Of a stretch of DNA of 64,000 nt, positions 2,141 through 45,897 are shown piece by piece. Position 1 is the stretch's first letter. Every line of letters starts with the position of its first letter. Under the pieces are notes generated by a model. It was given only the letters and a program-made list of their open reading frames with translations. It did no database searches and was not told where the DNA came from. The translations under genes were made by a program, and so were the position numbers. Location of the stretch: assembly GCA_041650295.1 (NCBI GenBank), contig JBAZLM010000004.1, positions 51,860 through 115,859 of the forward strand. The letters are read 5' to 3'. This DNA is from Candidatus Omnitrophota bacterium. GTDB taxonomy: Bacteria > Omnitrophota > Gorgyraeia > Gygaellales > Profunditerraquicolaceae.

Positions 2141-3541
2141 GTGAGAGTAAAGTCTGTTTTTAGTTGTTCCAATTGCGGATATCAATCGCCAAAATGGTTG
2201 GGTAAGTGTCCGGATTGTAATAGTTGGAATTCTTTTGTAGAAGAGGATTATGCTGCTCCCGCTTCTTCTGGGATAAAAGAAAGAGTTTCTTTATATAAAG
2301 ACGCACCTGTACTTTTAAAAGATGTAGTGGCTTGTGATGAAGATAGGATAAAAACTAATATTGTTGAGCTGGATCGGGTTTTAGGTGGTGGGATTGTTAA
2401 GGGTTCAGTAATTTTAATTGGTGGTGACCCTGGAGTTGGTAAGTCTACTATTTCGTTACAGGTTTCTAATCATTTAACTAAGCAAGGCATCGGCGTTCTT
2501 TATGTAAGCGGAGAAGAAAGCGTTGCGCAGACTAAATTACGCGCTAAACGTTTAGGTGAGGCCGGAACAGATAATCTTTATATTGTTAATCAAACGGATT
2601 TATCTTTAATCGTAGAGTATATAAAAAAATTAAAGCCGCAAGTTGTAATTATTGATTCAATTCAGGTAATTTTTGATTCTGGAATTAGTTCATCTCCAGG
2701 AAGTGTCAGTCAGGTTAGAGAATGTTCGGGGATTCTGACACAGCTCGCTAAAACTACCGGAACTTCAATTTTTATTATTGGCCATGTCACTAAAGAAGGT
2801 ACTTTAGCCGGTCCGCGGGTTTTAGAGCATATCGTAGATACAGTTTTATATTTTGAAGGCGATCGTTTTGCCATTTATCGGATCTTGCGGGCGGTAAAAA
2901 ATAGATTCGGTTCAACTAATGAAATTGGTGTATTTGAAATGGGATCGACTGGTCTATCGGAAGTTAAGAATCCGTCAGAGATTTTTCTCTCTGAGCGACC
3001 TAGTGATGTTTCCGGAACGATTGTTACTTCGATTCTAGAAGGCACACGTCCACTTTTGGTAGAGATTCAGTCGTTGGTTTCTCGCTCTAGCTTTGGCTAT
3101 GCACGTAGACGGGCGCAAGGTTTTGATTTTAATCGCTTGTCACTTTTGGTTGCTGTTTTAGAAAAGCGTATGGGCCTAGCTCTTGAGGCCGAAGATATTT
3201 TTATTAATGTTGCGGGTGGCATAAAAATTGAAGATCCCGCCGCAGATTTAGCAGTTTGTGCGGTAATTGCTTCAAGTTTTCGCGAGCAGGTAGTTTTACC
3301 TAAAACTGTAGTTTTAGGCGAAGTAGGATTAAGTGGTGAGATTCGCAGTATCTCTCAAGTGTTAACCCGCATTAATGAAGCAGAAAAGCTAGGTTTTAAA
3401 CATTGTATCTTGCCGAAAAATAGTGTTAAGAATATTAAATTGAAAAAATCAGAGATGGAGATTATTCCAGTTTCTACGTTGAAAGAGGCCCTAGACATTA
3501 TCTTAATATCATCTGCTAAATTGAATAGGGAAGGAGCATAA
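2141..3541 (+). CDS. radA: DNA repair protein RadA/Sms
   Basis: GTG start. N-terminal C4 zinc ribbon CSNCGYQSPKWLGKCPDCNSW, Walker A GDPGVGKST, the KNRFG motif and a Lon-protease-like C-terminal domain. Confidence 0.9.
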   Translation: MRVKSVFSCSNCGYQSPKWLGKCPDCNSWNSFVEEDYAAPASSGIKERVSLYKDAPVLLKDVVACDEDRIKTNIVELDRVLGGGIVKGSVILIGGDPGVGKSTISLQVSNHLTKQGIGVLYVSGEESVAQTKLRAKRLGEAGTDNLYIVNQTDLSLIVEYIKKLKPQVVIIDSIQVIFDSGISSSPGSVSQVRECSGILTQLAKTTGTSIFIIGHVTKEGTLAGPRVLEHIVDTVLYFEGDRFAIYRILRAVKNRFGSTNEIGVFEMGSTGLSEVKNPSEIFLSERPSDVSGTIVTSILEGTRPLLVEIQSLVSRSSFGYARRRAQGFDFNRLSLLVAVLEKRMGLALEAEDIFINVAGGIKIEDPAADLAVCAVIASSFREQVVLPKTVVLGEVGLSGEIRSISQVLTRINEAEKLGFKHCILPKNSVKNIKLKKSEMEIIPVSTLKEALDIILISSAKLNREGA

Positions 3542-4522
3542 ATGAATTTATTATTAGCACGGGTTTTATTTATCTTAGGTAGTATGGCGATTGGTTATCA
3601 GACAGTGGTGATTAATAGTTCTGGTTTAATTGGTATGGTGATTGGCGCGGCAATCGCCTTGCTGATGATTATGGCCGAAGCAGGATTACGTAAAGTTTCA
3701 GTGAGTGGATTATCGAGTGCGGTTTTTGGCTTAATCTTAGGTTTAATCATGGCTAAGTTGGTGGGGGATGCTTTTAGTATCGCACCTATCGATGCGTTAA
3801 TCCTTTCTAGAATTAGGGTGGGATTAACTTTAATTTTTTGCTATCTGGGTATGGTTATGGCTTTGCGCGGCAAAGATGAATTTAATATTATTATTCCTTA
3901 TGTGCGCCTGCGTAGACAAGATCAGGCTCAAGACGTAGTACTTTTAGATACTAGTGTAATTATAGACGGAAGAATTGTTGATCTTTGTAAGACACGTTTT
4001 TTAAGCGGAAAAATTATTATTCCAAAATTTGTTTTACGTGAATTACAGCAGATTGCTGACTCTACCGATCCGATTAAGCGCCAGAGGGGCAGACGAGGAC
4101 TAGAGATTCTGAATAACATTCAAAATGAACCGGGTATGGATATTACAATTCATGAACAAGATTTTACTGAGACTAGTGAAGTGGATGCTAAGTTAGTGTT
4201 GTTAGCTAAATTATTAGAGGCTAAAATTTTGACGGTTGATTTTAATTTAAATCGAGTGGCTAGCATTCAGGGAATTAAAGTTTTAAATATTAATGAGTTG
4301 GCCAACGCCTTAAAGCCGGTAGTTTTTCCTGGCGAAGAGATGCAGATTAAGTTAATCAAAGAAGGGAAAGAACATAATCAGGCAGTAGGTTACCTTGATG
4401 ATGGTACGATGGTGGTAGTGGAAGATGCACGCAGATTAATTGGCCAAGATGTTAAAGTAGCGGTAACTTCTGTATTGCAAACTCAAGCTGGTAGAATGAT
4501 CTTTACTAAAGTTGAGAAATAA
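3542..4522 (+). CDS. Membrane-anchored PIN/TRAM domain protein (YacL-like)
   Basis: Four predicted N-terminal TM helices, a PIN-like segment ([12 protein letters not shown]) and a C-terminal TRAM-like beta domain. It sits downstream of radA, as yacL does in Firmicutes. Confidence 0.6.
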
Positions 4523-13874: not shown

Positions 13875-16800
13875 ATGAAATTTAAGTCTTCAAAACTATT
13901 TAAAATCATTGCTTTGTTGATCTGTTTTGTGCTGTGCTTTGAGCAATCTGGCTTTGCGCAAATTGCCGCTCAACTGGATATCTCAGGCAAGTTATCTGGC
14001 TTGGTTAATTCCATCGCCCAGGACAAATTTCGCCCCCTACATCTGCGTTATCTTCAGTATGATACTAAACTCAATAACTTTAAGCTTCTTCTGGATAAGG
14101 GTAGCTCTAAAGAACTCTCTAAACCTTTTATCGAGCAATCCACTAAAACATTACTAAACTACTTCTTAGCCGGAGTCACTTTACCTAATGACACCTTTTG
14201 GGTAAACCTAAGACCGGATTCTCCAGATAACGTCATTGACCCAGCTTTAGCTCAAACCGACATCGGTCGCATTATGCTAGAAGCTGACGTCCAGCTTAAA
14301 AAAGATACGGCTAGCTTTACTTCTCCCAACACCCCAGAAGGCAAACAATACTGGGATAAGCTCTATACTAAAGCCGGAGAACTCTTTGGCTCTCAAAACA
14401 TCACTATCCCCACCTTAACCCGTCCCTGGATAGTCCCCAACGAGATCATCATCCGTGAGACTATTGATAACGCCTATATCTATAAAGCTACCCTAAAAGT
14501 CATGTTGGAAGATGATTACTTAAAAGAAGGTAAAGGTATCGGCACCGGTATAGATTACTCCTTCAAAGATGAAAAATTAAAACAACTCAACCAATACTCA
14601 TCTGAACTTATCCGCCAGTTAATCATTCCCAAACTAACCAAAGAGATCAACACCTCAAAACGCTACGCTAACCTGCGTCAGGTATACTACTCGTTAATCT
14701 TAGCCCAATGGTTTAAACAGAGATTTGCTAACAACTCTGGAGCTTATTCCAAACTAATCAACCAGAAAAACCTCACTAACCTAACCTCTAAAACCAGCTG
14801 GAGCAAGGATACTTACTTCCAGCAATACCAAAAGTCCTTTAAAGACGGGGAATACAATATCAAAACCCCGGTATCTACCCCTTACGGCCAGGTGATCAGG
14901 AGCTATTTTTCGGGAGGGATCAGGCCTATACCGCAAATTCCTGCTCCTGGAGAAGTATCGCAAGATGGTTTAGTTACTTCAGTAAAAGGGGGAGAATTAT
15001 TTGCAACGGTTACCGGAAGCGATAAGCTGGCAGGGGTTAGCATCGATGATGGAGTAGTAAAAACTACTGATCAGGCTCAGCCATCAAATGGATTTAAAAT
15101 AGAGGATCAAACTACCCCTCCAAAAGTTGAGAATGGTATCTCCGTTAGAAGAGTTGATCTATCCAAATTACCAGTAGGAACGATTATTAAATATAGAATT
15201 TCAAATGATAATTGGAATTATACCTTAAGAGTCGAAGCTAATGGAAGAGTTAGTATCTGGTTGAGGGAAGATCAAGGAAGAATAACCGCGTCGATTAAAG
15301 CTATTGGGAGCAGAGTTCCTTCACTTACCCCGGGCGATGCATATGATGCAGATTTTTTCGGAGAAATAGAACCTGGCGTATTAGCCTATCAGCCGTATTT
15401 TAATCAAACTGATATAGCTGGCAGCAAGGTGCGAGAATTAGTATCCATCGGTGATTATCCTATTCAAGCTACTCCGGAAGACATTATGGTCTATTTGCCT
15501 GATGGAAAAACTCAATTGCCTCGAGAAAAGCCACGGGCATTGCAAGATAAATTTAAGCGTAAAGTCAAAGAGCTAAATGAATTTATTGTTCATCATGGTA
15601 TTCCCGGAGAAAACCCGTTGGAGGCTAACGGATTTGAATTTTTGGTAAAAAGCGGGATAACTAAGGTGGAGATCTTGGCAGAGCGTTTAGGAATGGATAA
15701 GGATAGCCTTGAGGAGATTCTTAGCGCGGTTGAAGAGCAAAAAGGATGGGACATTATTGAAAAGACGATTGATACTTCGACGTTTAGTTTTGCTTTTGAA
15801 AAATTGGCAAAACTACAGGCCGAAAAGAATCTTTATCCAAAACCGCAAAAAACAATTAAGGAAAAGGCCTATGAATTTAAAGATAAAGTTATCAAATTTG
15901 TAAAAGATGAAACTGGCGCGTTGCAGCTAACAGGCTATCGCCAAGATAAAAAATTTAATCAAAAAATTGCAATGGATAAAAAGCTAGCAGGTTTTTATGC
16001 GATTGCGGAAGACCTACTTGAACAACTCCAAAAATTTCCAGATAAACAAGATCTAGTAATTGAGCTTATTGAAAATAAATTTAATGCATTAGTTAGGGAA
16101 TTTCCAAAACAACGCATAGAATTAAATAATGCTAAGAATGAACTTGTTAATGAGCTTGCTATTAATTTGTCATCTGGGCAGCAAGAAAGCATATATTTAC
16201 ACGGTTATTATGAGATTTTAAAAAATATTCTAAATAAATTAATCCCTTGGACGGATGATTTAAAAAAGAAAAACCCTGATTCAGAGTTTATTTTTGTGGC
16301 CAGAGATGCCGGATATATCTATTCGGTATTTAATGCTTTAGGAAAATTAGGTAAGGAGAAAGCCGAAGGATTTGTATATTATTTAAGCCGCGCTTCTATG
16401 TCTGAAGATTTAATTCGCAACGGTCCTTATGATACTGCAAGACGCATGATTAATCAAGCCCACTCAGATACAAAAACCGATAACATTAATGAGCTAACCG
16501 GAAATATTAGAAAAGAATTTAAAGATTATTTAGAACAGGACGATAGGTCTTTTTTGGATGAAACATCCCGTAAGGAATATTTAGAGTTTAAGAATATGGT
16601 GATTAAAGTTAATAGTGAGCTTAAAGCTTTAGGCTATGATCAATTGCAGAAACTAGTTTTGGTTGAGACAGGATTTAAAGGTACGATGCCGTTTTTGATA
16701 AAATTTATTTTAGATTTAGATAAAACGGATGAACAGTTAGCTAATGAAGCAAAAGAAAACGGTGGACAGGAAAATATTCAAGTCGCTATTTTAGAACCTA

Positions 16801-19800
16801 GGGATATTCCTGCTTTTACCGATGGTGTTTATGGCTTAACTGCAGAACAAGCTGAAACTGAGATGAATAAATTTGAAGATTTTTGGGGAGGTCAAGCAGT
16901 AGAAACTCCTGAGAGTGTGGTGGATCTCTTAGAAAAAGAAGATATCTCTCACCCGATAGAGTTTAACTTAATTGATTCAAGGGTAGAAAGAAATAGCAAT
17001 CCTGTTGAGTTGTTAAAATATTTTGTTAATCAGCTAGTAGTTGGGTTAGAAACAATTGAATATTATAAAAAAACTAGAAAGGTTGATGTTGAAAAGCCAG
17101 TGAATAAGTCCTTAGCACAGTTATCTCCTATTGCTGCGACTAAAATTATTGGCTCTGCGCTTGACAAAGGTAATAATTCTTTAGATGGACTGATTGCAGA
17201 AACCCCGGATTATACGGGAAAATTAGTTCAGTTGCAAAATCCCAAACAGATGAGCGCTGGAAATTTTGACGGTACTAGCCATCTGCAATTTACTGATGAT
17301 CCTCAGGGAAAAGCGGGGCAGGTTTGGTTATTTAAAGGTTATCCTCGGCAGAAATGGCATCGCGCTTTAGTTGATGAATTTGTTTATCATATAGCGGAAA
17401 AGCTTGGTTTAAAAAGTGCAATACCGGTTTTTGCCGGGCGGATTAAAAATGGATATATGACCGAGTTTGGAATGTTTATGCGCTGGGAGGAGAACATTGG
17501 TTCTTTGTATGAAGTTTATAGAGGTGATTTTATCCAAAAATTAAGTGAGAATAAAGAAAATCTTAAAACAGTTTTAAGGGAACAGGTCCTAGATTGGCTA
17601 GTTTCACAGCATGATTCCCATTCTCGGAATTTTCTTATTGCTGACGATAAAGACAAAAGTCTTATTCCGATTGATTTTTCACAGGCATTTAAGTTTTTAG
17701 GCAAAGATGAGCTTTCGCTTGATTACAATCCTAATGGTGATGTTAATGGCTACAATAATGTTGCCTACATGCCGATCTATAATCTTATTTATCAAGCAAT
17801 AATTAATAAAGAGATTGATTTTACCCTAACTGAGGCCTGGGAAGTTGTGCAGGAGGTGTTAGAGCGCGTAGAAGAAATGGATACTGATGAATATATTCAG
17901 GCTTTAAAACCTTATGCTGAATTTAGATTTAAAATAATGAAGGATGCTAGTTGGAGTATTAGAAATAGCGATGAATTTTTAAAGTTAGCCCGGGAAAGAA
18001 AAGTTAATATGCGTAAAGATTTCGAAAAGTTTTATAAAAAGCTCGGTTTTTCTAGTGAGACTGATTATCGTTTTAGTTTGCTGGAAATCATGGAGAACCC
18101 CCTCCAAGAGAAGCAAGAATTTTATGTCGATCAATTTAATGCGCTCTGGATTTTTAATGAAAATCAAGATTTGGCTACCAAACCTTATAAGTCTTTAGCG
18201 GCAAAAACTTATCATCAATTTATGGGAAAAGTTTTAGATCGCAATAGTATCGTTTTAGAAACAACTTTTAAAGCTAAAGATGGTCGCATTCGCACTGGAA
18301 CGATGCAAAAAGTTTTTTATCAGGAGCCCTCAGCCAATAAACAATTAAAAGAATTGAATCTTGCGGATTTCAGAGATTGGAGCCAAAACCGGGTATCTAT
18401 AAAATTTTGGGGGCTGGAACCGCCAAAGATTAAGCAAGTTTTGGAAGAGATGGTGATTGATTGGTTATTTTCTAATTACAGCAGTACCGAATCAACCTGG
18501 TTTGAACATGGGTACGCTAAATTCTATTTAATTTGTTTAGATGATAAATCGGATTCTTTTAAAGATTTTCCCAATGACAGGCTTGAGGCGAAAAAGGATT
18601 CTGATGATAAAATAAAACCACCTTTTGCTTACAATTTAGTTAAATATTTAGCTCTCCAAAATCGTCTTTCTATGGATCTGATTGAAGAAATATTGAAAAA
18701 AATTGAAAGTATTCCGGATAACGAAGTTGAAGAACTAATTCGTCCGCTAGCCAAAAGTTATGTTGCTACTAACCCTGATAAGTTTAAGCGTCCGGAAGAT
18801 TTTATAAAAGCATTTTTATCTAGAAAAGACAATTTACGTAAGGATTTTAAAGAATTTTTTCATCAAAATTATTTATTAAATACACCGTTTAATTCTCAAG
18901 TACAAACTCATCAGGCGATGACAGATAAATATATTATTTCCTCAGATCTCTATCAACAGATACATAATGCCCGAGGTGATCAAACCGCGATTATTAAGCT
19001 AATTAACCAACGTTTTAATGAATTAGCCGAAAATTTATCCTGGGAGGAAGTGGAACCTCTAGCGCAAAAAAAGGAAGAGCTGATTATCCGGATCACTGGA
19101 CCGCCAGTTTTAACGAATCAAGATGTACAAATGGATTTACAAACTAATCCTATTGTGCGAGATCGGAAGTTTAAAGCTATGTCTAGACTGTTGGCTTCTT
19201 GGGTTTATTCTTTAAGAGAGCAAAAACCTGATTATTATCTGATTGGTTTAGCCCGTGACGGAGGATATATTCCTTTAATTGATCAATTATTTAATTATGC
19301 TGGAATAATTCCTAAAACTGGCTCTAGTGTTTATCATTTGAGCTGCCCCCGGATGTCAGGAGAGACGCAAAAGAAAATTTATAGCATGATGTATGAAATT
19401 ATTGCAAATGCATTAAAAAATGTTGAGCATAATGATATCCAAGGTTTATATGCGCAAATTCGTTTAGGATTTAATAAAGCAATGGCTGAGAATTCAAGTT
19501 TTTTAGTGATGGTTACAGAAATTCGGAAAGAATTGATAGGGCTTGGATTTGATCAAAAAAATAAAATTGTCATTACGGATACTGGATTTTTTGGAACAAT
19601 TGCTTTCTATATCAAATGTATTTTAGATATGGATAAAAGCCAAGCAAGATTGGAACAAGAATTAGTGGATAATCATGGTCATGAAAATATTGAAGTTGCC
19701 ATTTTACAACCTAGCAGTATAGAAAGTTTTAACAAAAGTTTATTTGGTTTTGATACAACGAGACTTACTCAAGATGATCAGGCTATCGCCAGAAAGTTAG

Positions 19801-22400
19801 AAACAATTTTTGGTTTGCGCAATGTTTTAGGAAATGAATTTGAGAGCAATAAAATTATGCATCCGGTAAAATTTAATGAAGACAATTGGCTGATCGAAGA
19901 TACTGATGCCAGCTCACAATTGGAATTATTTTACCAGCAGATCATGATTGCTCAAATGGTGGATGCATTTATTGCTAGAGAGGGGATTGATTACCCGGGG
20001 CAAGATACTTTGGCTGGTTTTGGTGGCATTGATTTAGACGAAAAGATTGCCGCCCAGGCATTTTTTGATCAACCGGATAATGGTGAGTTAAAAGTTATTA
20101 TTGACCGTTGGTTTAAAGAGTTAATCGCTAAAGATGGATATGTAGCATTTAAGAAATTATATGATGCTTGCGGCCGGTTAAGCTTTATTAAATTATTGCG
20201 TTTAAAATTTCCCCTGCTTTCCACTAACATAATTTTGACCCCGAATCAAGAATTTAAAAGACAATCTCTGTTGGTGCAGTATCTACTTAAACGACAAGGT
20301 ATTCTAACCAGCAGTGTCCCGGTAGCTAGAAAAAAAGACCCAAAGAGCTTACCTTTTGAAGCGGATAAAAAATTCAGTGGTGTGTTATTGGATGTTGATG
20401 GCACAATTACCATGCCCGGCGGAGAGATATCTGATGCGATCATCGAAAAAGTTGAGGAAATGATTACCCGTGGAAACAAGGTAGGAATAGTTACTGGCAG
20501 AAGAGCGCTATCCCCGGATGTTTTTGAGGAGGTAATTAAATTAAAGGTTAACCGACAGGCGTTAAATAATCTTTACATTTTTACCCAGGATGGGGCTCAA
20601 GGTTATAGTGTAGGTGATACTAATCTGCGATGGGAATTTAAAACCGGTTTAAATGAACGAAAAAAGATTTTAAAGAAGTTGGAGCGAAGCGAATTGGTTA
20701 AGTTCCATTGCCAAATTATTCCTGAATCAGCAAAATTAATTTTTAAAATGGATAATCATGACGATACGGACGATTTAATTTTAACTTTAAAGATTGCTTT
20801 AGTTGATTTAGGTTTGGATGCTAAATATTCTGTGGTGGATGCCGGGGCAAATGTGCATTTAATCGCTAGTCAAGCGGACAAAGGAGCGGCAGCCAAAAAA
20901 TTTAGCAATGTAACCGGTTTAGCTCAAGAAAATATATTAAAAATTGGAGACAACTATAATTTGGATGGCAATGATTATCCAATGTTGGCTTTGCCCGGAG
21001 GGGTGGGAGTCAATGATAGCGAGACTACGCTTTGGTTGCTAGATACCTATTTTAAAAATACTGTATTGACCCCAAATATACAATTATTTGCACTTACCGA
21101 TGAGGGGACTGATCCTTTAAGTAATTCTCTGCATTTTGTTAACAATAAAGACATTACGAGTGTAATTTTACCCAAAAACAAATTCGCTGCTTCGGTGGAC
21201 ATGTTAAAAGTGTTTGAAGAATCTTTGCAATACGAATTAGGTAAAGTTCCGCTTTTTTCTATTTTCGGTTCACTTTCTTATGCGCGTGATAAAGAAGGTA
21301 ATATTATTTGGGATACGATCGGTGATTTTGATATTAAGCTTTATACTGAAGAATTATTATGGAATGATGATATCACAGAGATAAAACTTAACTTTTTAAA
21401 TGCTCTTAAAAATCTGGGAATAAAAGTGGATATTCAGGGTAGTGATTCTCCATCTGGATCAGGGCGTGATCTGAGTTCATTAAACTGGGGTATTCTGGAC
21501 AAGCAGGGCAAAAAATATATAGTACATATTATTAATTTTAGAACTAAAGATCTACTTTCTAAAAATGACGCTTTTGTAAATATCCGCAGTAATTTATTTT
21601 ATGGAGATACGCAAGCTTTAAATAATGCGTTGAACATTGTTGGCATTGAAACGGCGGTTGAACAAGCTGCGGTTAGCTGCGAAAAAACGATCTCAATTAT
21701 AAGCAATGCGATAGCTAAAGTAGAAAATATTCGGTCAGAGAATGTGAAACTATTAAAGAGATTATACCAAATTGCTTATGTACAAGGTCGAGAAGCTGAT
21801 TTTTATTGGCTTTTAGAAAAATACCGGAAATTAAGTTTAGAATTTAATCAACAGGATTTAGCTGACGCTTGTAATGAGGGAATCTCTAAACTTATTATGA
21901 ATCCTGAAGAATTACGTGCACTGTTACGTGATAGACTTAAAGCAAATATTAAATTAGTTGATAGTAAATCTATGGCTACTGTTGCGATTCCTGGCGCCGC
22001 ATCGGATAAAGGTGGCGTTGACTTTCGCGGTCTGCCAATTGGCATCCAAAGTCAAAGGATGATTGGCGCATCAGCAGTATTGATTCCGTCTCCAAGGTTA
22101 GATCAAGAGTGGAGCCAGATTGAGCGCATGCTTAACCAAGGAATTATCCCTTCTATTGAAAGGCTGAAAGATTATCTCTCTTTATCTTGTAAGGGCGCAG
22201 ATTGTTCGGCTAGAGTTGATCAAACCTTAAGCGGAATTGCCAATATTCTTAGAATTGAAGAAGAGAGCTTAACCCCCACTGATGCAGCTTTAAAACAACT
22301 GTTAATTTTACTGGAATCTAATCAACCGGCGAATCAATTACAGTTAGCTTTAACCAAAATTCAAGCATCAGAAAAGATGCCGGAGTTAGCTATTCATTAA
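13875..22400 (+). CDS. Giant secreted multidomain protein (2841 aa) with a signal peptide, two paralogous internal domains, a PI3K/PI4K-like atypical kinase motif set, a HAD-superfamily phosphatase domain and a possible nucleotidyltransferase-like segment
   Basis: Single uninterrupted 8526-nt ORF. The N-terminus has a signal peptide (MKFKSSKLFKIIALLICFVLCFEQSGFAQ). The clearest domain is HAD, with motif I LLDVDGTIT, motif II S/T (VGIVTGR), motif III K (DKGAAAKKF) and motif IV GDNYNLDGNDYPML. A kinase-like region has WLFKG, a DSHSRN catalytic loop and IDFS. GS...DFD suggests an NTase fold. Paralogous segments share ARDAGY/ARDGGY and TGF(K/F)GT motifs. Confidence 0.85.
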   Translation: MKFKSSKLFKIIALLICFVLCFEQSGFAQIAAQLDISGKLSGLVNSIAQDKFRPLHLRYLQYDTKLNNFKLLLDKGSSKELSKPFIEQSTKTLLNYFLAGVTLPNDTFWVNLRPDSPDNVIDPALAQTDIGRIMLEADVQLKKDTASFTSPNTPEGKQYWDKLYTKAGELFGSQNITIPTLTRPWIVPNEIIIRETIDNAYIYKATLKVMLEDDYLKEGKGIGTGIDYSFKDEKLKQLNQYSSELIRQLIIPKLTKEINTSKRYANLRQVYYSLILAQWFKQRFANNSGAYSKLINQKNLTNLTSKTSWSKDTYFQQYQKSFKDGEYNIKTPVSTPYGQVIRSYFSGGIRPIPQIPAPGEVSQDGLVTSVKGGELFATVTGSDKLAGVSIDDGVVKTTDQAQPSNGFKIEDQTTPPKVENGISVRRVDLSKLPVGTIIKYRISNDNWNYTLRVEANGRVSIWLREDQGRITASIKAIGSRVPSLTPGDAYDADFFGEIEPGVLAYQPYFNQTDIAGSKVRELVSIGDYPIQATPEDIMVYLPDGKTQLPREKPRALQDKFKRKVKELNEFIVHHGIPGENPLEANGFEFLVKSGITKVEILAERLGMDKDSLEEILSAVEEQKGWDIIEKTIDTSTFSFAFEKLAKLQAEKNLYPKPQKTIKEKAYEFKDKVIKFVKDETGALQLTGYRQDKKFNQKIAMDKKLAGFYAIAEDLLEQLQKFPDKQDLVIELIENKFNALVREFPKQRIELNNAKNELVNELAINLSSGQQESIYLHGYYEILKNILNKLIPWTDDLKKKNPDSEFIFVARDAGYIYSVFNALGKLGKEKAEGFVYYLSRASMSEDLIRNGPYDTARRMINQAHSDTKTDNINELTGNIRKEFKDYLEQDDRSFLDETSRKEYLEFKNMVIKVNSELKALGYDQLQKLVLVETGFKGTMPFLIKFILDLDKTDEQLANEAKENGGQENIQVAILEPRDIPAFTDGVYGLTAEQAETEMNKFEDFWGGQAVETPESVVDLLEKEDISHPIEFNLIDSRVERNSNPVELLKYFVNQLVVGLETIEYYKKTRKVDVEKPVNKSLAQLSPIAATKIIGSALDKGNNSLDGLIAETPDYTGKLVQLQNPKQMSAGNFDGTSHLQFTDDPQGKAGQVWLFKGYPRQKWHRALVDEFVYHIAEKLGLKSAIPVFAGRIKNGYMTEFGMFMRWEENIGSLYEVYRGDFIQKLSENKENLKTVLREQVLDWLVSQHDSHSRNFLIADDKDKSLIPIDFSQAFKFLGKDELSLDYNPNGDVNGYNNVAYMPIYNLIYQAIINKEIDFTLTEAWEVVQEVLERVEEMDTDEYIQALKPYAEFRFKIMKDASWSIRNSDEFLKLARERKVNMRKDFEKFYKKLGFSSETDYRFSLLEIMENPLQEKQEFYVDQFNALWIFNENQDLATKPYKSLAAKTYHQFMGKVLDRNSIVLETTFKAKDGRIRTGTMQKVFYQEPSANKQLKELNLADFRDWSQNRVSIKFWGLEPPKIKQVLEEMVIDWLFSNYSSTESTWFEHGYAKFYLICLDDKSDSFKDFPNDRLEAKKDSDDKIKPPFAYNLVKYLALQNRLSMDLIEEILKKIESIPDNEVEELIRPLAKSYVATNPDKFKRPEDFIKAFLSRKDNLRKDFKEFFHQNYLLNTPFNSQVQTHQAMTDKYIISSDLYQQIHNARGDQTAIIKLINQRFNELAENLSWEEVEPLAQKKEELIIRITGPPVLTNQDVQMDLQTNPIVRDRKFKAMSRLLASWVYSLREQKPDYYLIGLARDGGYIPLIDQLFNYAGIIPKTGSSVYHLSCPRMSGETQKKIYSMMYEIIANALKNVEHNDIQGLYAQIRLGFNKAMAENSSFLVMVTEIRKELIGLGFDQKNKIVITDTGFFGTIAFYIKCILDMDKSQARLEQELVDNHGHENIEVAILQPSSIESFNKSLFGFDTTRLTQDDQAIARKLETIFGLRNVLGNEFESNKIMHPVKFNEDNWLIEDTDASSQLELFYQQIMIAQMVDAFIAREGIDYPGQDTLAGFGGIDLDEKIAAQAFFDQPDNGELKVIIDRWFKELIAKDGYVAFKKLYDACGRLSFIKLLRLKFPLLSTNIILTPNQEFKRQSLLVQYLLKRQGILTSSVPVARKKDPKSLPFEADKKFSGVLLDVDGTITMPGGEISDAIIEKVEEMITRGNKVGIVTGRRALSPDVFEEVIKLKVNRQALNNLYIFTQDGAQGYSVGDTNLRWEFKTGLNERKKILKKLERSELVKFHCQIIPESAKLIFKMDNHDDTDDLILTLKIALVDLGLDAKYSVVDAGANVHLIASQADKGAAAKKFSNVTGLAQENILKIGDNYNLDGNDYPMLALPGGVGVNDSETTLWLLDTYFKNTVLTPNIQLFALTDEGTDPLSNSLHFVNNKDITSVILPKNKFAASVDMLKVFEESLQYELGKVPLFSIFGSLSYARDKEGNIIWDTIGDFDIKLYTEELLWNDDITEIKLNFLNALKNLGIKVDIQGSDSPSGSGRDLSSLNWGILDKQGKKYIVHIINFRTKDLLSKNDAFVNIRSNLFYGDTQALNNALNIVGIETAVEQAAVSCEKTISIISNAIAKVENIRSENVKLLKRLYQIAYVQGREADFYWLLEKYRKLSLEFNQQDLADACNEGISKLIMNPEELRALLRDRLKANIKLVDSKSMATVAIPGAASDKGGVDFRGLPIGIQSQRMIGASAVLIPSPRLDQEWSQIERMLNQGIIPSIERLKDYLSLSCKGADCSARVDQTLSGIANILRIEEESLTPTDAALKQLLILLESNQPANQLQLALTKIQASEKMPELAIH

Positions 22401-35979: not shown

Positions 35980-36381
35980 GGGGGTGAAAGGGTTCGACTT
36001 GAGATGGTCGGATAAGAGTAGCATGCCGCGGATGTAAGGTTAGCCGCGTTAAAAATCCTTGCACAATCTAAACGCAAACACAAACGTGTTCAACCGTTTA
36101 GCACCAAAGGCAGCAATGCCTTTGATGCCTGCGGGCGTACAAGCCTTAGCGTTTAATTAAACGTTAAGCCTCTAGCCGTTTTTGCCTACGAAACGGATTA
36201 GGGCCTTAGTAGGATAGCTTCGTCAGGTTAGCCTTTGTGGATGAAGCGAGATTTTAAAGGCTGCTCCTTGCAAATCCTGTCTGTAGAAGTTGCAAGGTTA
36301 AGACAAATTACAAGGCTAAGCATGTAGTGACTTTTATTTGATTACTTAAGGACCCCGGTTCAATTCCGGGCACCTCCACCA
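35980..36381 (+). ncRNA. ssrA: tmRNA (ssrA)
   Basis: The 5' GGGGGUG pairs with the 3' CACCUCC including the G3:U wobble. The 3' tRNA-like domain is GGACCCCGGUUCAAUUCCGGGCACCUCCACCA with encoded CCA. It lies 7 nt after the smpB stop. An internal ORF-like tag frame runs 36074-36160. Confidence 0.85.
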
Positions 36382-42532: not shown

Positions 42533-43128
42533 AATTAGTAGTCGCAACTAAAAATAAAAAAAAGTTACAAGAAATAAAAGATATTTTAAAAAAACAAAAA
42601 TTAACTTTATTATCGCTTGCAGCTTATAAAAATTCTCCCAAAGTAATTGAAAATGGAAAGACTTTTAAGGAGAATGCTATAAAGAAAGCGGTAAAGCTAG
42701 CGCGTTTCACCGGCGAGTTTTGTTTAGGTGAAGATTCGGGATTATGTGTTGATGTTTTAAATGGCGCTCCAGGGATTTATTCAGCGCGTTTTTCTGGTAA
42801 AGAGAAAAGTGATTTAAAAAATAATTTAAAACTTTTAAGTTTACTTAAAACTGTGCCTTTAGCGAAAAGAAAAGCGCATTATTTTTGTGCGGTCGCCTTA
42901 GCGGATAAAAATGGATTAGTAGGGGTAGTTGAAGGACGGTGCGCTGGACGTATTGCTTTTACTGCGCAAGGGAGTGCGGGTTTTGGATATGATCCCTTGT
43001 TTTATATTCCAAAATATAAGAAGACGTTTGCGCAGTTGGGTGAGAAGATTAAACATAAGATGAGTCATCGTTATTTTGCTTTAAAAAAAGCTAAGCAGAT
43101 AATACAGAAATATATTGTAAATAGGTAA
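42529..43128 (+). CDS. rdgB: dITP/XTP pyrophosphatase (RdgB/Ham1 family)
   Basis: [18 protein letters not shown] and FGYDPLF motifs. rph-rdgB adjacency. Confidence 0.85.
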
Positions 43129-43284
43129 TCTGTTGATATAATCAAAGCTCTTTAAGATAAGATTTTTGTAGGGATGTGATGGGGCGTGCCCCGTTACAAA
43201 CCAGAAGCTTAAAAAATTAAAGAGATAGATGTGGTGGGGGCGTGCCCCGTTGCATCTAAGAATCTTTAATTATAATAGATGCAA

Positions 43285-43359
43285 CGGGGCGTGGCTCAGT
43301 TTGGCTAGAGCGCCTGCTTTGGGAGCAGGAGGTCACAGGTTCAAGTCCTGTCGCCCCGA
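43285..43359 (+). tRNA. tRNA-Pro(TGG)
   Basis: Hand-folded. Acceptor is CGGGGCG/CGCCCCG. Anticodon stem is CCTGC/GCAGG with loop TTTGGGA. T arm is ACAGG-TTCAAGT-CCTGT. Discriminator is A and no CCA is encoded. Confidence 0.8.
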
Positions 43360-43373
43360 CAAAAATAATCAAT

Positions 43374-43447
43374 GCGCCTGTAGCTCAATTGGATAGAGCA
43401 CCTGCCTTCTAAGCCGGTTGTTGGCCGTTCGATTCGGCCCAGGCGCA
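43374..43447 (+). tRNA. tRNA-Arg(TCT)
   Basis: Acceptor is GCGCCTG/CAGGCGC. The D arm is nearly identical to E. coli argU. Anticodon loop is CTTCTAA with one U:C mismatch in the stem. T arm is GGCCG-TTCGATT-CGGCC. Confidence 0.7.
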
Positions 43448-43640
43448 TTAGAATTAGAGGGCCTACTTGCTCGCTGCGCTCGCAAGTACTGCGCTAGATA
43501 AAAGATTAGAGGTGATTGTTCGGCCCAGGCGCATTAAAATAAATAAAAGTGCTTGCCCTTGCTCGCTGTGCTCGCAAGGATTTCGCCGAATAAAAGATTT
43601 AAGGTGCTCAATTCTGCCCAGGCGCATTAAAATTTTAACC
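43430..43640 (+). repeat. Two degenerate tandem units of about 95 nt, each ending with a copy of the tRNA-Arg 3' end (GGCCCAGGCGCATTA) and each containing a GCTCGC-type hairpin
   Basis: The 3' end copy is GTTCGATTCGGCCCAGGCGCATTA in the tRNA, TGTTCGGCCCAGGCGCATTA in unit 1 and TTCTGCCCAGGCGCATTA in unit 2. The hairpin CTTGCTCGCTGYGCTCGCAAG is followed by ATAAAAGATT in both units. The two units are about 80% identical. Confidence 0.7.
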
Positions 43641-43655
43641 AAAATTAATAAGTTT

Positions 43656-44873
43656 ATGAAAAATTGGCAAAAAATATTTAAAATAGTTGTTATAGTAGTT
43701 ATATTGTTTAGTTTGTTTTATGTATTTTTAATGCTAGAAGCTAAGCATTTAATTATTAAAGTAATCTCAGATGGTAGTGGTCGCAAAACTACGATTGACA
43801 AGCTAGAAATCAAGCCTCCGTTAAATTTAGAGATAAAAAATTTAGAGATTCAAGGCGTGTTTAAGGCCAGCTACATTTATTTATCACCTAGTATTCCCAA
43901 TCTTTTAAGAGGCAGAGTAGCATTAAATAAAGTAAGAATTTTTAATCCCCAGCTTACTTATCAGCGTATTCCACCTCCGGTTATTGTACAAGATAGTACT
44001 GCAGTAGTAGAGTTTCCTCAGGCTGAGGTAGCTGTGCCGGTTGTAACGGCACCTGCTCCTGTTAGCCAGGATAATAAAGTTTTTCCTATAATTATAAAAA
44101 GCTTAAAGGTAAAATCTGGTTTATTAAATTTTATCGATTCTACAGCAACTGCCGGTAGCATTAAAATTATAATTAAAGACATCCAATTTTATATTACAAA
44201 TTTATCTACAGTTAATATTAATGCTGTTAGTAACTTTAATTTAAGGGCAAGTATCTCTTGGAATACCGGAGAGCCGGATGGTAGATTATTTTTGCAGGGC
44301 TGGGCAAATTTTGGCAAGAAAGATGTTTTAGCTAAATTAAAGATTGAAGATATCGACGCGATTGTTTTTTATCCATATTATTCAACCTGGGTTAATTTAG
44401 AAAAAGCGCGGATTGATAAAGCTAAACTTAATTTCAGCAGCGATATTAAAGGCGTGAATAATAATGTGGATGCGGTTTGTCATTTAGAGTTAATTGATAT
44501 GGTGCGCAAAGTGCGGCCTCCGCAGGAACCGCAGCAAAAAGCAGAGAGACTAACTGATGCAGTATTAGATATGTTCAAATCGATGAATCAGGGAAAAGTA
44601 ATTTTAGATTTTACTTTACATACAAAAATGGATCAACCAGCTTTTGGTTTTGCTAATATTAAATCTGCTTTTGAAGGAAAAATTATGGAAGGCAAGGCAA
44701 GGGCTGGATTGCGGCCGCAAGATATGCTATTATGGCCTGGTAAGTTAGTGCAAAGTGGGGTAAAGAGCGGAATAGATCTTTCTAATGCGGTAGTGGATGG
44801 CGCAGTAGCTTTAGGTAATGGAATAAAAAAGTTTTTTGAAAGAACAATAAATACTCCGGCTTCGGAGAATTAA
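43656..44873 (+). CDS. Membrane-anchored AsmA/DUF748-like protein
   Basis: One N-terminal TM then a beta-rich periplasmic region with the repeating pattern typical of AsmA-like proteins. The ORF-track start at 43467 extends through the tRNA-derived repeats and was rejected. Confidence 0.5.
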   Translation: MKNWQKIFKIVVIVVILFSLFYVFLMLEAKHLIIKVISDGSGRKTTIDKLEIKPPLNLEIKNLEIQGVFKASYIYLSPSIPNLLRGRVALNKVRIFNPQLTYQRIPPPVIVQDSTAVVEFPQAEVAVPVVTAPAPVSQDNKVFPIIIKSLKVKSGLLNFIDSTATAGSIKIIIKDIQFYITNLSTVNINAVSNFNLRASISWNTGEPDGRLFLQGWANFGKKDVLAKLKIEDIDAIVFYPYYSTWVNLEKARIDKAKLNFSSDIKGVNNNVDAVCHLELIDMVRKVRPPQEPQQKAERLTDAVLDMFKSMNQGKVILDFTLHTKMDQPAFGFANIKSAFEGKIMEGKARAGLRPQDMLLWPGKLVQSGVKSGIDLSNAVVDGAVALGNGIKKFFERTINTPASEN

Positions 44874-44881
44874 TTTTATTT

Positions 44882-45046
44882 TTAATTTATGGTGGCTGTA
44901 GCTCAACTTTAGCGAGCAGACAACTTACGGCAGCGTGAGCAACGTAAGTTGTAGGCGAAGCCGTCTGCGAGCTAATCCCGTGTTTACGAGAAAATTCCAG
45001 AGAATTTTCGAGTGGTTTAACACGGGAGAAAGAGTATTAATTGTTC
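44882..45046 (+). repeat. Degenerate duplicate of the tRNA-His 5' half (27-nt direct repeat TTAATTTATGGTGGCTGTAGCTCAACT at 44882-44908 and 45047-45073) followed by a 138-nt hairpin-rich insert
   Basis: Identical 27-mers, the second of which begins the intact tRNA-His. The insert contains ACAACTTACG-N13-CGTAAGTTGT and CCCGTGTT...AACACGGG inverted repeats. Confidence 0.7.
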
Positions 45047-45055
45047 TTAATTTAT

Positions 45056-45133
45056 GGTGGCTGTAGCTCAACTGGTTAGAGCTTCTGATTGTGGTTCAGA
45101 AGGTTGCGGGATCGTGCCCCGTCAGCCACCCCA
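45056..45133 (+). tRNA. tRNA-His(GTG) with genome-encoded G-1 and CCA
   Basis: Very close to E. coli tRNA-His (GGTGGCTGTAGCTCA...). Anticodon stem is TCTGA/TCAGA with loop TTGTGGT. The 3' end is AGCCACCCCA. Confidence 0.85.
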
Positions 45134-45168
45134 GTTTTTTAGCTTGTTTTTATTTAAAGGAGATAGTG

Positions 45169-45897
45169 ATGAAAATTAAAATATTAGTAGTTTTGTTTTT
45201 TGTGGCGTTTTTGAGCGCCAATAGCTATGGGCAGGATGAAAAGGATAAGATAAATAAAAATTTAACTAATCTGCCAGCTACTGCAGCAGCCAGTATTATT
45301 ACTTGTACCGGTGGTCAATATTTGGTTAACGGTAAATGTGAATGTCGTAATAATTTTTATTGGAATGAGCGCCTAAAGCAGTGTCGCCCGATAAGAACCT
45401 GTCCCCCGGGTCAGCATTTAGATCGCGATAAAGATGATTGTGTTGCGAATTGTACAGGCGGTCAGATTATTATTAATGGTAAATGTGAATGTAGGAATAA
45501 TTTTTATTGGAATGAACGTTTAAAACAGTGTCGCCCAGTTAGAACTTGTCCTCCCGGTCAGCATTTAGATCGCGATAAAGATGATTGTGTTGCTGATTGT
45601 ACTGGCGGCCAGATTCTGGTTAATGGTCAATGTCAATGTCGCAATAATTTCTATTGGAATGAGCGCCTAAAGCAGTGTCGCCCGATAAGAACCTGTCCCC
45701 CAGGCCAGGATTTTAATAGGGAACTTGATGACTGCCGTAGTGCTTCCGGCAATGTCGTTCGTCCTCCGGTTCCTCTAGAAAAAAAGCCTTTAGTTGCTAG
45801 TGGCGCAAGACAGATGCCATCGAATCCTTTAGAAAAAGCTGTATTAGTTTCTGAAGATGTTAATCGTCCGCCAGATCCATTGGAAAGAAATCGTTAA
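45169..45897 (+). CDS. Secreted cysteine-rich tandem-repeat protein (three 49-aa repeats with six Cys each, plus a Pro-rich tail)
   Basis: SD AAAGGAGATAG. Signal peptide MKIKILVVLFFVAFLSANSYGQ. Repeat is CTGGQ(Y/I)LVNGKCECRNNFYWNERLKQCRP(I/V)RTCPPGQHLDRDKDDCVA(N/D). The ORF-track start at 45091 overlaps tRNA-His and was rejected. Confidence 0.75.
   Translation: MKIKILVVLFFVAFLSANSYGQDEKDKINKNLTNLPATAAASIITCTGGQYLVNGKCECRNNFYWNERLKQCRPIRTCPPGQHLDRDKDDCVANCTGGQIIINGKCECRNNFYWNERLKQCRPVRTCPPGQHLDRDKDDCVADCTGGQILVNGQCQCRNNFYWNERLKQCRPIRTCPPGQDFNRELDDCRSASGNVVRPPVPLEKKPLVASGARQMPSNPLEKAVLVSEDVNRPPDPLERNR
45304..45744 (+). repeat. Three tandem 147-bp coding repeats within the cysteine-rich protein gene
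   Basis: Units at 45304-45450, 45451-45597 and 45598-45744. Units 1 and 2 are nearly identical at nucleotide level over about 100 nt. Unit 3 diverges at its 3' end. Confidence 0.85.

Follow-up and report, generated by a model that had tools for sequence, protein, structure and literature searches.

The window analyzed here, a stretch of 64,000 nucleotides (64 kb) from a Candidatus Omnitrophota genome, contains a tRNA operon whose parts up to the DUF748 gene lie on the + strand. A TTGATATAAT/TTGATATACT motif immediately 3' of the rdgB stop codon is kept in related loci. The promoter-like site of the operon (TTGTAA and TATAAT at a spacing of 16, with an upstream TG; 43115..43142) scores 10/12 in a promoter scan, and the operon's first gene is tRNA-Pro(UGG) (43285..43359; found by ARAGORN, and by the Rfam tRNA model with 68.7 bits). 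It is followed by tRNA-Arg(UCU) (43374..43447; Rfam tRNA, 62.5 bits), which is intron-less and does not encode its CCA. Directly behind this gene lie two tandem units, unit 1 (type A, 86 nt, 43448..43533) and unit 2 (type B, 93 nt, 43534..43626), which a profile of their family finds with nhmmer E-values of 8e-23 and 1.4e-19, respectively. The next segment (43627..43655), delimited by comparison of filled and empty sites, is the native trailer of the tRNA and at the same time the short leader, lacking a Shine-Dalgarno sequence, before the DUF748 start codon; in unit-free genomes this sequence directly follows the tRNA (L011 versus L010, L020 versus L023, L003 versus L004). The DUF748 gene (43656..44873; Pfam DUF748) encodes an AsmA-like membrane protein whose sequence matches a 405-amino-acid Omnitrophota protein at NCBI with 100% identity. 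Farther on in the same operon, a second type of insert (138 nt, 44909-45046) precedes tRNA-His and is bounded by a 27-nt tRNA-His duplication.

Each unit ends in a copy of the tRNA-Arg tail. The sequence GCCCAGGCGCATTA has exactly three matches in the window, all on the + strand, at 43437, 43523 and 43616 (chance expectation 0.30; none of 100 shuffles reached three). The first is the 3' end of tRNA-Arg(UCU) at 43374-43447, and the other two bear out the observation of an earlier note, made from the letters of this DNA, that this 3' end recurs twice downstream. The 15-mer given in that note, GGCCCAGGCGCATTA, matches the first two copies without any change, whereas the third starts with a T (TGCCC...); its unit length of roughly 95 nt comes close to the measured start-to-start distances of 86 nt and then 93 nt. 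The segment shared with the tRNA consists of TTCGGCCCAGGCGCA plus TTA, i.e. tRNA positions 59-73 (master copy at 43433-43447) and three trailer bases. Its left edge is the T-loop and its right edge the discriminator, so that a copy spans the end of the T-loop, the 3' strands of the T-stem and of the acceptor stem, and the discriminator. Throughout the family described below, the tail copy always corresponds to positions 59-73.

Unit 1 opens with an AU-rich trailer (43448-43458), followed by GGGCC (43459-43463), the hairpin P1 (43464-43488), the conserved linker CTGCGCTAGATAAAAGATTAGAG (43489-43511), GTGATTG (43512-43518) and the copy of tRNA nucleotides 59-73 (43519-43533). Unit 2 is only 71% identical to it and consists of an AU-rich trailer (43534-43548), a GTGCTTG that resembles an acceptor 5' strand (43549-43555), the hairpin P1' (43557-43579), the linker ATTTCGCCGAATAAAAGATTTAAG (43580-43603), GTGCTCAA (43604-43611) and the tail copy TTCTGCCCAGGCGCA (43612-43626), which has a G-to-U change within its T-stem part. 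The earlier note had correctly assigned a hairpin and a motif to each unit: the hairpin CTTGCTCGCTG(C/T)GCTCGCAAG matches at 43466 and 43558 and nowhere else in the window within three mismatches, and ATAAAAGATT occurs twice, at 43498 and 43590. The hairpin is imperfect: its outer stem, of 7 bp in unit 1 and 6 bp in unit 2, is followed by a 2x2 internal loop of TC/TC and then by two G-C pairs that close a loop of 3 nt. Elsewhere in the 64-kb window the unit motif is absent; there are only two copies, both at one site, and no terminal inverted repeats were found in the units.

Of about 55 related Omnitrophota loci, about 25 have homologous units directly 3' of tRNA-Arg (L003, L008, L009, L011-L013, L015, L017, L020, L024, L025, L040-L051, L053 and L055), while other loci with identical gene order have none. 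Copy number turns over, from 0 to at least three in tandem, and even the closest relatives have no unit, at least two, or fused units. The module comprises a short AU-rich trailer, the hairpin, an A-rich linker of ~25 nt with the conserved pattern ..CUGCGCUAGAUAAAAG..UAAGGUGCUU.. and, at the tRNA-Arg site, the copy of tRNA positions 59-73. L017, L047 and L048 have units in tandem whose trailers are nearly identical, and the L040 unit derives, by a 36-nt deletion, from a unit like that of L011. The tail copy matches the local tRNA in both cases that are informative on this point: in L008 it ends in a discriminator G, as does the local tRNA, and in L046 it has CCTGC (a CCUGC T-stem) next to tRNA-Arg(CCG) instead of tRNA-Arg(UCU). 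Terminal units that lack the tRNA-like end are found in L013, L024, L025, L040 and L049, and units that have lost the tRNA copy still conserve GTGCTTG. As about two thirds of the related genomes have no units, and several terminal units have no tRNA-like end, the module, and above all its 3' mimic, is dispensable.

Related sequences are not confined to this position. Diverged bodies lie in inverted orientation in tRNA-Pro/tRNA-Arg spacers (L014, L049), ahead of tRNA-Leu (L042), and, with no tRNA, upstream of rph (L024). Related bodies at the ends of tRNA-Leu and tRNA-Pro have duplications of the tRNA 5' end (9-19 nt) at their borders, and simpler partial copies of T-arm plus acceptor occur in L026 and L027. 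Taken together, the duplications measure 9-27 nt, with limits that are set by tRNA landmarks and a length that is not fixed.

The units form a family that is under purifying selection and is inherited vertically. With the tRNA copy excluded, type-A bodies are 82-89% identical to unit 1 of the window across genomes, and type-B bodies (L009, L012) are 80-83% identical to unit 2. At the 4-fold degenerate sites of the adjacent DUF748 gene, identity is 32-48% for a random expectation of 30%, i.e. these sites are saturated. Distances between units correlate with those between DUF748 genes (Mantel test, 13 loci, r=0.515, p=0.0002). The hairpin P1 is 94.6% paired in the family and covaries: both-sided changes affect four of its nine pairs (15 cells), and none of 500 shuffles had as many. 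Its loop is hypervariable and differs in nearly every genome. That divergence tracks the host and the hairpin loop is hypervariable indicates that the units have resided at the locus for a long time, rather than having been inserted recently.

RNAalifold predicts P1 and, in addition, an acceptor-like helix of 7 bp, GUGCUUG/CAGGCGC. RNAfold pairs GUGCUUG with CAGGCGC in unit 2 as well, and in unit 1 the predicted helix has a mismatch (GUGAUUG). The helix is nearly invariant and for this reason has no covariation support in the family alignment. The fold stability of single units is unexceptional (z about 0 to +1.5), and Rfam at E<=10 over 42800-45300 returned no match for the units, which also have no T-arm. 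Of the 13 units whose 3' copy is intact, 11 retain the 5' GGGCC, whereas it has degenerated in all four old truncated units (Fisher p=0.006). A complementarity between AAGGUGCUC and nucleotides 22-29 of tRNA-Arg was regarded as chance, since it is not kept beside tRNA-Arg(CCG) or tRNA-Leu.

A scan for promoter- and terminator-like sites found none in the units. In 13 related loci, the gap between tRNA-Arg and the ATG is 7-35 nt. As the spacer in these other genomes is too short for a promoter, it appears that tRNA-Pro, tRNA-Arg, the units and DUF748 are co-transcribed from the tRNA-Pro promoter. Inspected by eye as a promoter, Shine-Dalgarno sequence, IHF site or boxA, the linker fits none of these, and a pattern search for boxA gave only noise. 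A long open reading frame that runs from TTG 43467 through both units into DUF748 was set aside, as its frame is not conserved in relatives.

The explanation that we favor, with moderate confidence, is that the units are a selected, co-transcribed spacer RNA that is vertically inherited and excised at its tails, and that they are not scars. Such an RNA is best read as starting with a hairpin, continuing in an A-rich linker and ending in a mimic of the acceptor stem; by analogy to the rtT RNA of E. coli, it is probably excised by the enzymes that process tRNA 3' ends. The tail copy would pair either with the GUGCUUG just upstream, as a 7-bp acceptor mimic with G.U pairs (P2), or with the 5' GGGCC (P0, GGGCC/GGCCC), and either pairing would recreate a tRNA 3' processing site. 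The enzymes that trim tRNA-Arg behind the discriminator could then also cut behind each unit, which would free it as an RNA of 86-93 nt and leave the DUF748 mRNA with the same short leader that it has in unit-free genomes. We infer cleavage at the tail copies, as well as any benefit to the cell, from these features. The copies of 15-18 nt may double as direct repeats, so that unequal or intramolecular recombination would gain units or precisely drop them, and gene conversion may hold the tail copy similar to the adjoining tRNA. An RNA role bound to one orientation at tRNA-Arg does not explain the inverted bodies (L014, L049) or those in L042 and L024, which count as evidence against it.

The earlier note had taken the tail copies for relic att scars, left by serial integration and excision of integrase elements that target the tRNA-Arg 3' end, with the hairpin as a former arm site. 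It was correct in that the tail segment, from T-loop to discriminator, covers the stretch that forms the identity block in tRNA att sites of the T-loop type; the attB of Ms6, for example, sits in the T-loop of tRNA-Ala (PMC1762012). The locus does have three direct repeats of nucleotides 59-73 that start in the T-loop. The last copy is followed by the native trailer and the tRNA itself by new sequence, as integration would produce, and relatives have other selfish DNA at the locus (GIY-YIG ORFs, and a group I intron that carries a homing endonuclease). However, neither an integrase nor a remnant of one is present between 22.5 and 62.6 kb of the window, where the ORFs are housekeeping genes (the note, too, had stated that no integrase remains), or in the tRNA-Pro..DUF748 intervals of related loci, or at this site in about 55 loci, where the interval from tRNA-Arg to DUF748 never exceeds about 210 nt. 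Searches of IMG/VR, the INPHARED phages and the PLSDB plasmids gave no match to the unit core or the tRNA-Arg 3' end, which leaves the scars without a viral or plasmid sequence that carries either. Clean excision of integrative elements leaves no scar, and independent deletions would leave remnants of unequal extent, whereas the unit boundaries are the same everywhere. Inert relics would be decayed, but the units are 80-89% conserved, have compensatory stem changes and diverge congruently with their hosts. Att sites with a T-loop crossover and CIMEs share with our locus the direct repeats from T-loop to 3' end and the distal position of the native trailer; here, however, the repeats are separated by only ~70 nt instead of kilobases, there is no integrase, foreign gene, or viral or plasmid counterpart, and what lies between the repeats is kept by purifying selection and passed on together with the host genome. 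The note had stated that its reading would be refuted if the motif were found nowhere else in the genome and the units were transcribed only as part of the downstream gene's leader; this is largely the situation, as the motif is confined to this site in the 64-kb window and the spacer with the units is apparently co-transcribed with DUF748. We consider integrase scars largely refuted and highly improbable. The alternative that the note mentioned, small RNAs that mimic a tRNA 3' end, is close to the explanation favored here.

Of the other explanations, it appears unlikely that the units are a mobile element, small and non-autonomous, in which a ~70-bp hairpin module is inserted site-specifically at or into the ends of tRNA genes by an enzyme acting in trans. 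The tail copies would then be att-like target duplications, and conservation would reflect the needs of movement. This would account for the patchy distribution even in the closest relatives, for the fit of the terminal copy to the local tRNA in both informative cases (including the Arg(CCG) case of L046, in another gene context), for related bodies in both orientations and at tRNA-Leu and tRNA-Pro ends between 9-19 nt duplications of tRNA 5' ends, and for the second insert at 44909-45046 with its 27-nt flanking duplication of tRNA-His. But unit divergence follows the host and the loop is hypervariable, the 64 kb hold two copies only, at one site, no candidate mobilizing gene is linked to the units, and the viral and plasmid collections contain none of them. 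Moreover, the duplications, 9 to 27 nt long and delimited by tRNA landmarks, are unlike those made by transposases, and precise loss via the flanking direct repeats explains the patchiness equally well. A dispersed repeat of the MITE or REP type was rejected in view of the two copies in 64 kb, the lack of terminal inverted repeats and the lack of a fixed-length duplication. The units could also be a cis-regulatory 5'-UTR element that acts on translation or stability of the DUF748 mRNA, with an incidental tRNA-like end. In most loci they do lie immediately upstream of the DUF748 start, and the conserved linker contains a Shine-Dalgarno-like UAAGG. Yet the unit of L046 lies ahead of a carB-like gene, in L042, L014 and L049 related bodies lie ahead of tRNA genes, most relatives express DUF748 although they have no unit, the unit is not at a constant distance from the start codon, copy number ranges from 0 to at least three, and the in-frame ORF extension over the units is peculiar to the window (66 codons, compared to 2-31 in most others), making such an element quite unlikely. 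Decayed tandem duplicates of tRNA-Arg, i.e. pseudogenes of which only the ends were kept, would explain why the 3' 15 nt are tRNA-derived, why GTGCTTG looks like the acceptor 5' strand, GCGCCTG, after two C-to-T changes and the TGCGC of the linker like the tRNA 5' end, and why L026 and L027 contain partial copies of T-arm and acceptor. This origin is nevertheless very improbable: similarity between the unit body and the interior of tRNA-Arg(UCU) or tRNA-Arg(CCG) was not significant in 19 of 20 comparisons (p = 0.1-0.7), neither ARAGORN nor Rfam, even at E<=10, finds a tRNA in the units, the same body adjoins different tRNAs, and pseudogenes would not be expected to keep 80-89% identity. A decayed tRNA-Arg body that had been traced by eye (TGCGC..TAG..ATA..AAGCT..GGTGC) failed a shuffle test.

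For a co-transcribed spacer RNA, the closest parallel is the tyrT-tyrV operon of E. coli, where the distal repeats, known since the late 1970s, comprise a 178-bp unit present about 3.14 times and are associated with rtT RNA (rttR) and tpr. To our knowledge, these repeats are still an isolated curiosity, with little understanding of their origin and purpose. In E. coli K-12, we find that the last 19 nt of tRNA-Tyr recur six times at a spacing of 178 nt downstream of tyrV, and that the annotated sRNA rttR ends exactly at one of these tail copies. That one repeat unit of the tyrT operon encodes rtT RNA is stated in PMC3318445, with reference to Bosl and Kersten (1991). Both systems have tandem units directly behind the last tRNA of the operon, and in both the units end in a copy that runs from the T-loop to the 3' end (nucleotides 58-76 in E. 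coli, checked in K-12, and 59-73 here). Both also have an upstream stretch that is complementary to the T-stem/acceptor junction of the copy and leaves a 7-nt 3' tail (GGGGAAGGAT in E. coli, GGGCC in the Omnitrophota unit). There is no sequence homology, as local alignment does no better than same-orientation shuffles. The Omnitrophota units are half as long (86-93 versus 178 nt), do not encode CCA, and have no conserved small ORF in place of tpr. Among themselves, the repeats of E. coli share about 95% identity, and they are limited to enterobacteria, whereas the Omnitrophota units fall into two diverged subtypes (71% identical), each kept across many deeply diverged genomes, with related bodies also at other tRNAs and in inverted orientation. 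A second parallel is provided by plant mitochondria, in which tRNA-like elements and acceptor-stem-like stem-loops have been proposed to direct RNase Z and RNase P at mRNA ends (PMC1920247). Like these t-elements, the units are partial tRNA mimics beside mRNAs, in a spacer that is, in our case, presumably transcribed. The t-elements have a T-arm motif (GGTTCRANYCC) and a cloverleaf-like fold, whereas the units have kept only the 3' strands of T-stem and acceptor stem.

A tyrT-like design, with units that end in the T-loop-to-3'-end segment of the preceding tRNA, is thus found in a distant, uncultivated phylum with unrelated sequence. Together with the purifying selection, the covarying hairpin and an inheritance in step with the host, this suggests that selection has arrived repeatedly at a "tRNA-tail mimic" in operon spacers, rather than that recombination has produced it by accident. 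Should the enzymes that process tRNA 3' ends indeed excise the units, bacteria would have an equivalent of mitochondrial tRNA punctuation and of t-elements, and the units would be a source of abundant small RNAs. For the annotation of genomic islands, the locus is a caution that a duplicated tRNA 3' end is not always an integration scar.

A hammerhead-like reading of the 5' inserts of tRNA-His and tRNA-Arg (..AAUGAG-stem-CGAAUU..) was dismissed, as core positions fail. We think it rather unlikely, yet conceivable, that the inserts found upstream of tRNA-Pro, the 138-nt insert ahead of tRNA-His and the units themselves are one phenomenon, in which structured modules inside partial tRNA-arm copies populate the tRNA operons of Omnitrophota. 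The copies would then be of the T-arm plus acceptor 3' strand downstream of a tRNA, and of the acceptor 5' strand plus D-arm upstream. Such modules might be natural mimics, of the acceptor stem or "external guide"-like, by which RNase P and RNase Z are brought to tRNA-mRNA co-transcripts and punctuate them, or they might be mini-elements of a previously undescribed kind that target tRNA loops and duplicate tRNA ends.

In the window, rph and rdgB are followed by tRNA-Pro(UGG) (43285-43359), tRNA-Arg(UCU) (43374-43447), the gene for a 405-aa DUF748 protein (43656-44873) and tRNA-His. The sequence GCCCAGGCGCATTA from the 3' end of tRNA-Arg occurs at 43437, 43523 and 43616, and at no other site within two mismatches in the window (chance expectation 0.3), and the hairpin CTTGCTCGCTG(C/T)GCTCGCAAG is found only at 43466 and 43558, confirming the statement of an earlier note that the tRNA-Arg 3' end recurs twice downstream, together with a hairpin. 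The note's description of the repeats is correct overall, except that the third copy begins with TGCCC, not GGCCC. The tRNA-end repeats are spaced by 86 and 93 nt, and the repeat finder detects a 49-nt block, 82% identical, that is common to the two units closed by the copies (unit 1, 43448-43533; unit 2, 43534-43626). The segment shared by tRNA and units extends from T59 to A73 (tRNA numbering), comprising the last two T-loop bases, the 3' strands of T-stem and acceptor stem and the discriminator, and continues into three trailer bases, TTA; no CCA is encoded. The repeat feature is real and non-random. The units match no Rfam family, and no dispersed copies exist elsewhere in the 64 kb window, so a dispersed-repeat reading was rejected within this available sequence. 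Also rejected were an ORF through both units, found in the window alone, as a meaningful gene, and, on testing, the unit body (the unit minus its tRNA-end copy) as a decayed tRNA.

A Candidatus Omnitrophota MAG encodes a protein 100% identical to the window's DUF748 protein, whose homologues in this phylum number in the hundreds. For comparison, we retrieved 39 loci from species-representative genomes with an alignment of DUF748 homologues, 12 metagenome loci with a DNA pattern taken from the unit core, and six further loci from look-ups of the four closest DUF748 relatives (L001-L057). The order rph-rdgB-tRNA-Pro-tRNA-Arg-DUF748-tRNA-His is kept across related loci, with hugely variable spacer lengths. 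Units are absent in 13 loci, where the DUF748 ATG lies only 7-35 nt after the tRNA-Arg end; many other loci have a gap of 83-125 nt, corresponding to one unit, or a longer one. Two units are present in the window, L012, L017 and L048/L055, and at least three in L047. Among the window's closest relatives (DUF748 identity 73-79%), units are absent, present in at least two copies, or fused.

The inserts behind tRNA-Arg can all be aligned with each other (alignments A2 and A3) and fall into two subtypes. Type A, to which unit 1 belongs, reads GGGCC-UA-hairpin-UACUGCGCURGAUAAAAG..UAAGGUGCUUG-UUCGGCCCAGGCGCA, and type B, represented by unit 2, L009 and the second unit of L012, reads GUGCUUGCC-hairpin-GAUUUCGCYGRAUAAAAG..GGUGCUCAAUUCUGCCCAGGCGCA. 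Unit 1 is 82-89% identical to type-A units of other genomes but only 71% to unit 2, which in turn is 80-83% identical to other type-B units. As 4-fold degenerate sites of DUF748 are only 32-48% identical between the window and these genomes (composition-based random expectation 30%), neutral sites are saturated, and a 60-nt non-coding body that nevertheless retains 80-89% identity must be constrained. The hairpin stem is paired in 94.6% of cells and shows double changes in 4/9 pairs, for example C-G to U-A (eight sequences) and CUUG/CAAG to CCCCG/CGGGG (L012), a level of covariation attained by 0/500 shuffles, while its loop differs in almost all genomes. Distances between unit bodies correlate with DUF748 protein distances (Mantel r=0.515, p=0.0002, 13 loci). 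Body conservation, hairpin covariation, variable loop and Mantel correlation together speak against both recent insertions and inert relics; judged from these comparisons, the units are an old, host-inherited element under purifying selection that has been lost repeatedly.

The left edge of the tRNA-end copy is position 59 in every case, and its right edge the discriminator, at times with one to three bases more. The copy follows differences in the local tRNA: in L008 tRNA and copy alike have a G discriminator, and in L046, where the unit sits between tRNA-Arg(CCG) and a carB-like gene, it ends in UUCCUGCCAGGCGCA, identical to the sequence of its own tRNA-Arg(CCG). The copies thus appear to be kept like the adjoining tRNA, most simply through gene conversion. 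Comparison of filled and empty sites (L011/L010, L020/L023, L003/L004) places the native trailer after the last copy and novel sequence after the real tRNA. Tandem units of one genome are alike even in their trailers in L017, L047 and L048, which indicates local amplification, and the L040 unit is an L011-like unit minus 36 nt, the deletion taking out the copy. Given also the varying unit numbers among relatives, the 15-18-nt copies behave as direct repeats permitting gain and precise loss of units. Unrelated short inserts in L026 (~100-145), L027 (3925-3990) and L051 (minus strand, after a type-A unit) also end 3' in a tRNA-Arg 3'-end copy, and in each case the complement of the copy's T-stem strand comes before it, for example GGCCGAATCCCT...AGGGATTCGGCC-CAGGCGCA in L027; hence the tail-copy design arose repeatedly at this site.

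At 43115-43142 the window has a promoter-like site, TTGTAA-16-TATAAT plus an upstream TG, whose -10 region is kept directly behind rdgB in relatives. Since the window scan found no promoter-like or terminator-like site inside the units, and a DUF748 promoter would have no room in unit-free genomes, we infer that tRNA-Pro, tRNA-Arg, the units and DUF748 form a single precursor. The DUF748 gene is flanked by tRNA-Arg and tRNA-His, and in many genomes it has a leader of 7-35 nt without Shine-Dalgarno sequence, which would imply that tRNA processing generates the mRNA 5' end from a tRNA-mRNA(-tRNA) co-transcript. The window has a terminator-like hairpin at 44854-44867 and, just 3' of the operon promoter, a boxA-like AGCTCTTTAAGAT (43146-43158) that is not kept in most related leaders; the boxA of E. 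coli rrn operons is TGCTCTTTAACAA.

These features suggest a model in which the precursor would be cleaved after the tRNA-Arg discriminator and again after each unit, since every unit ends in the same 15 nt held in a helix, either an acceptor-like GUGCUUG/CAGGCGC predicted by RNAalifold or a GGGCC/GGCCC pairing. This would release one RNA of 86-93 nt per unit, composed of a hairpin on the 5' side, a single-stranded linker rich in A and a structured 3' end, and the mRNA would keep its native 29-nt leader. Selection on the linker sequence hints that a factor binds it or that it pairs with a partner. A functional analogue of such end formation is provided by plant mitochondrial t-elements and acceptor-stem-mimicking stem-loops, which are proposed to direct RNase P/Z (PMC1920247).

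The closest parallel in organization is the tyrT operon of E. coli K-12, where positions 58-76 of tRNA-Tyr, its final 19 nt, are found six times: in tyrT, the tyrT-tyrV spacer, tyrV, and three more times downstream at 178-nt spacing. These 178-nt units are 95% identical among themselves, and the annotated sRNA rttR ends at the exact last base of one tRNA-Tyr copy. One repeat unit of the operon is reported to encode rtT RNA (PMC3318445, citing Bosl and Kersten 1991). The tyrT unit contains GGGGAAGGAT, complementary to AUCCUUCCCC of its copy, much as type-A units carry a 5'-side GGGCC complementary to GGCCC of their own copy, and in both cases 7 nt remain as a 3' tail; the two systems share no sequence homology. 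GGGCC is kept in 11/13 Omnitrophota units with intact copy, but degenerate in 4/4 old copy-less units (p=0.006). In our reading the units add a new, selected form to a known but little-understood class of tRNA-operon repeats. Whether they are specifically a spacer module of the tyrT/rtT kind, under selection and co-transcribed, we consider about evenly balanced. Their interest is moderate, and would be greater if the processing model or a mini-element model were true.

The earlier note had read the repeats as relic att scars left by integrase elements. The repeated segment indeed covers the same stretch as the identity block in att sites of the T-loop type, such as that of Ms6 (PMC1762012), and the note's remark that no integrase remains holds, as no recombinase gene is encoded at 22.5-62.6 kb of the window. 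The relatives' larger tRNA-Pro..DUF748 intervals also contain no integrase, encoding instead a sigma factor, lipoproteins, a response regulator and an intron-encoded PD-(D/E)XK endonuclease. IMG/VR contains no exact match to either the unit core or the 21-mer of the tRNA-Arg 3' end, and the whole region matches nothing meaningful among INPHARED phages or PLSDB plasmids. As the units are moreover old, conserved, covarying and host-congruent, unlike inert relics, there is little room for relic att sites, and we are highly confident that the units are not integrase scars. A second explanation, a site-specific mini-element with target duplication, is kept alive by more diverged body relatives in other places: inverted in tRNA-Pro/tRNA-Arg spacers (L014, L049), before tRNA-Leu(CAG) and bordered by an 11-nt duplicate of the tRNA-Leu 5' end (L042), and upstream of rph, where no tRNA is close by (L024). 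The window operon itself has two further insert types bordered by duplicated tRNA ends, before tRNA-Pro and before tRNA-His. We regard the mini-element explanation as rather unlikely. The same observations also motivate a still less likely reading in which the units and the inserts before tRNA-Pro and tRNA-His would all be one phenomenon.

The inserts before tRNA-Pro are two ~56-nt units in the operon leader (43181-43223 and 43237-43279) that mirror the tRNA-Arg finding: each begins with a copy of the tRNA-Pro 5' end, GGGGCGTG, joined to its own complement in the palindrome GGGGCGTGCCCC. In a perfect 15-nt inverted repeat (43244-43258/43276-43290), the 3' arm takes in the first 6 nt of tRNA-Pro. 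Similar leader units occur in L031, L012, L042 and L057. Before tRNA-His, 27 nt comprising its leader and nt 1-18 are duplicated (44882-44908 and 45047-45073), separated by a 138-nt insert (44909-45046) with a very stable fold (z=-4.25, 0/200 shuffles) and no Rfam match. By eye, similar inserts follow duplicated tRNA-Arg 5' ends or lie in the tRNA-Pro/tRNA-Arg spacer in L005, L006, L030, L049 and L057.

The tRNA-Arg(UCU) gene is intron-less in the window; in many relatives an insert of ~210 nt or more splits its anticodon between positions 34 and 35 (L001 3736-3950; L028, L005, L006, L015, L017, L020, L045, L050), and these split genes are overlooked by ARAGORN. The inserts have group I intron core motifs with a weak Rfam Intron_gpI match (17.6 bits, E=0.025), and some contain a ~124-150-aa ORF that by eye resembles PD-(D/E)XK homing endonucleases. 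Small ORFs, by eye GIY-YIG nuclease-like, lie immediately upstream of tRNA-Pro in L005 (~3040-3300), L024 (~3300-3690), there behind a duplicated 5' part of tRNA-Pro, and L031 (~3040-3200), and L053 has a weak HNH_3-domain ORF after DUF748. Selfish DNA seems to be drawn to this tRNA cluster. On the contig of L048, a 534-aa large serine recombinase (Resolvase, Recombinase and Zn_ribbon_recom domains) is encoded at L055/L056 2626-2907, ~1.2 kb downstream from DUF748 and tRNA-His, with tRNA-His between it and the tRNA-Arg repeats; the L048/L055 genome has two tandem type-A units. Elsewhere, the window encodes a 2841-aa ORF (13875-22400), a tmRNA (35980-36381) with an unusually long 28-residue tag, ANTNVFNRLAPKAAMPLMPAGVQALAFN, and a secreted cysteine-rich protein (45091-45897) with three near-identical ~47-aa repeats matching TNFR_c6.
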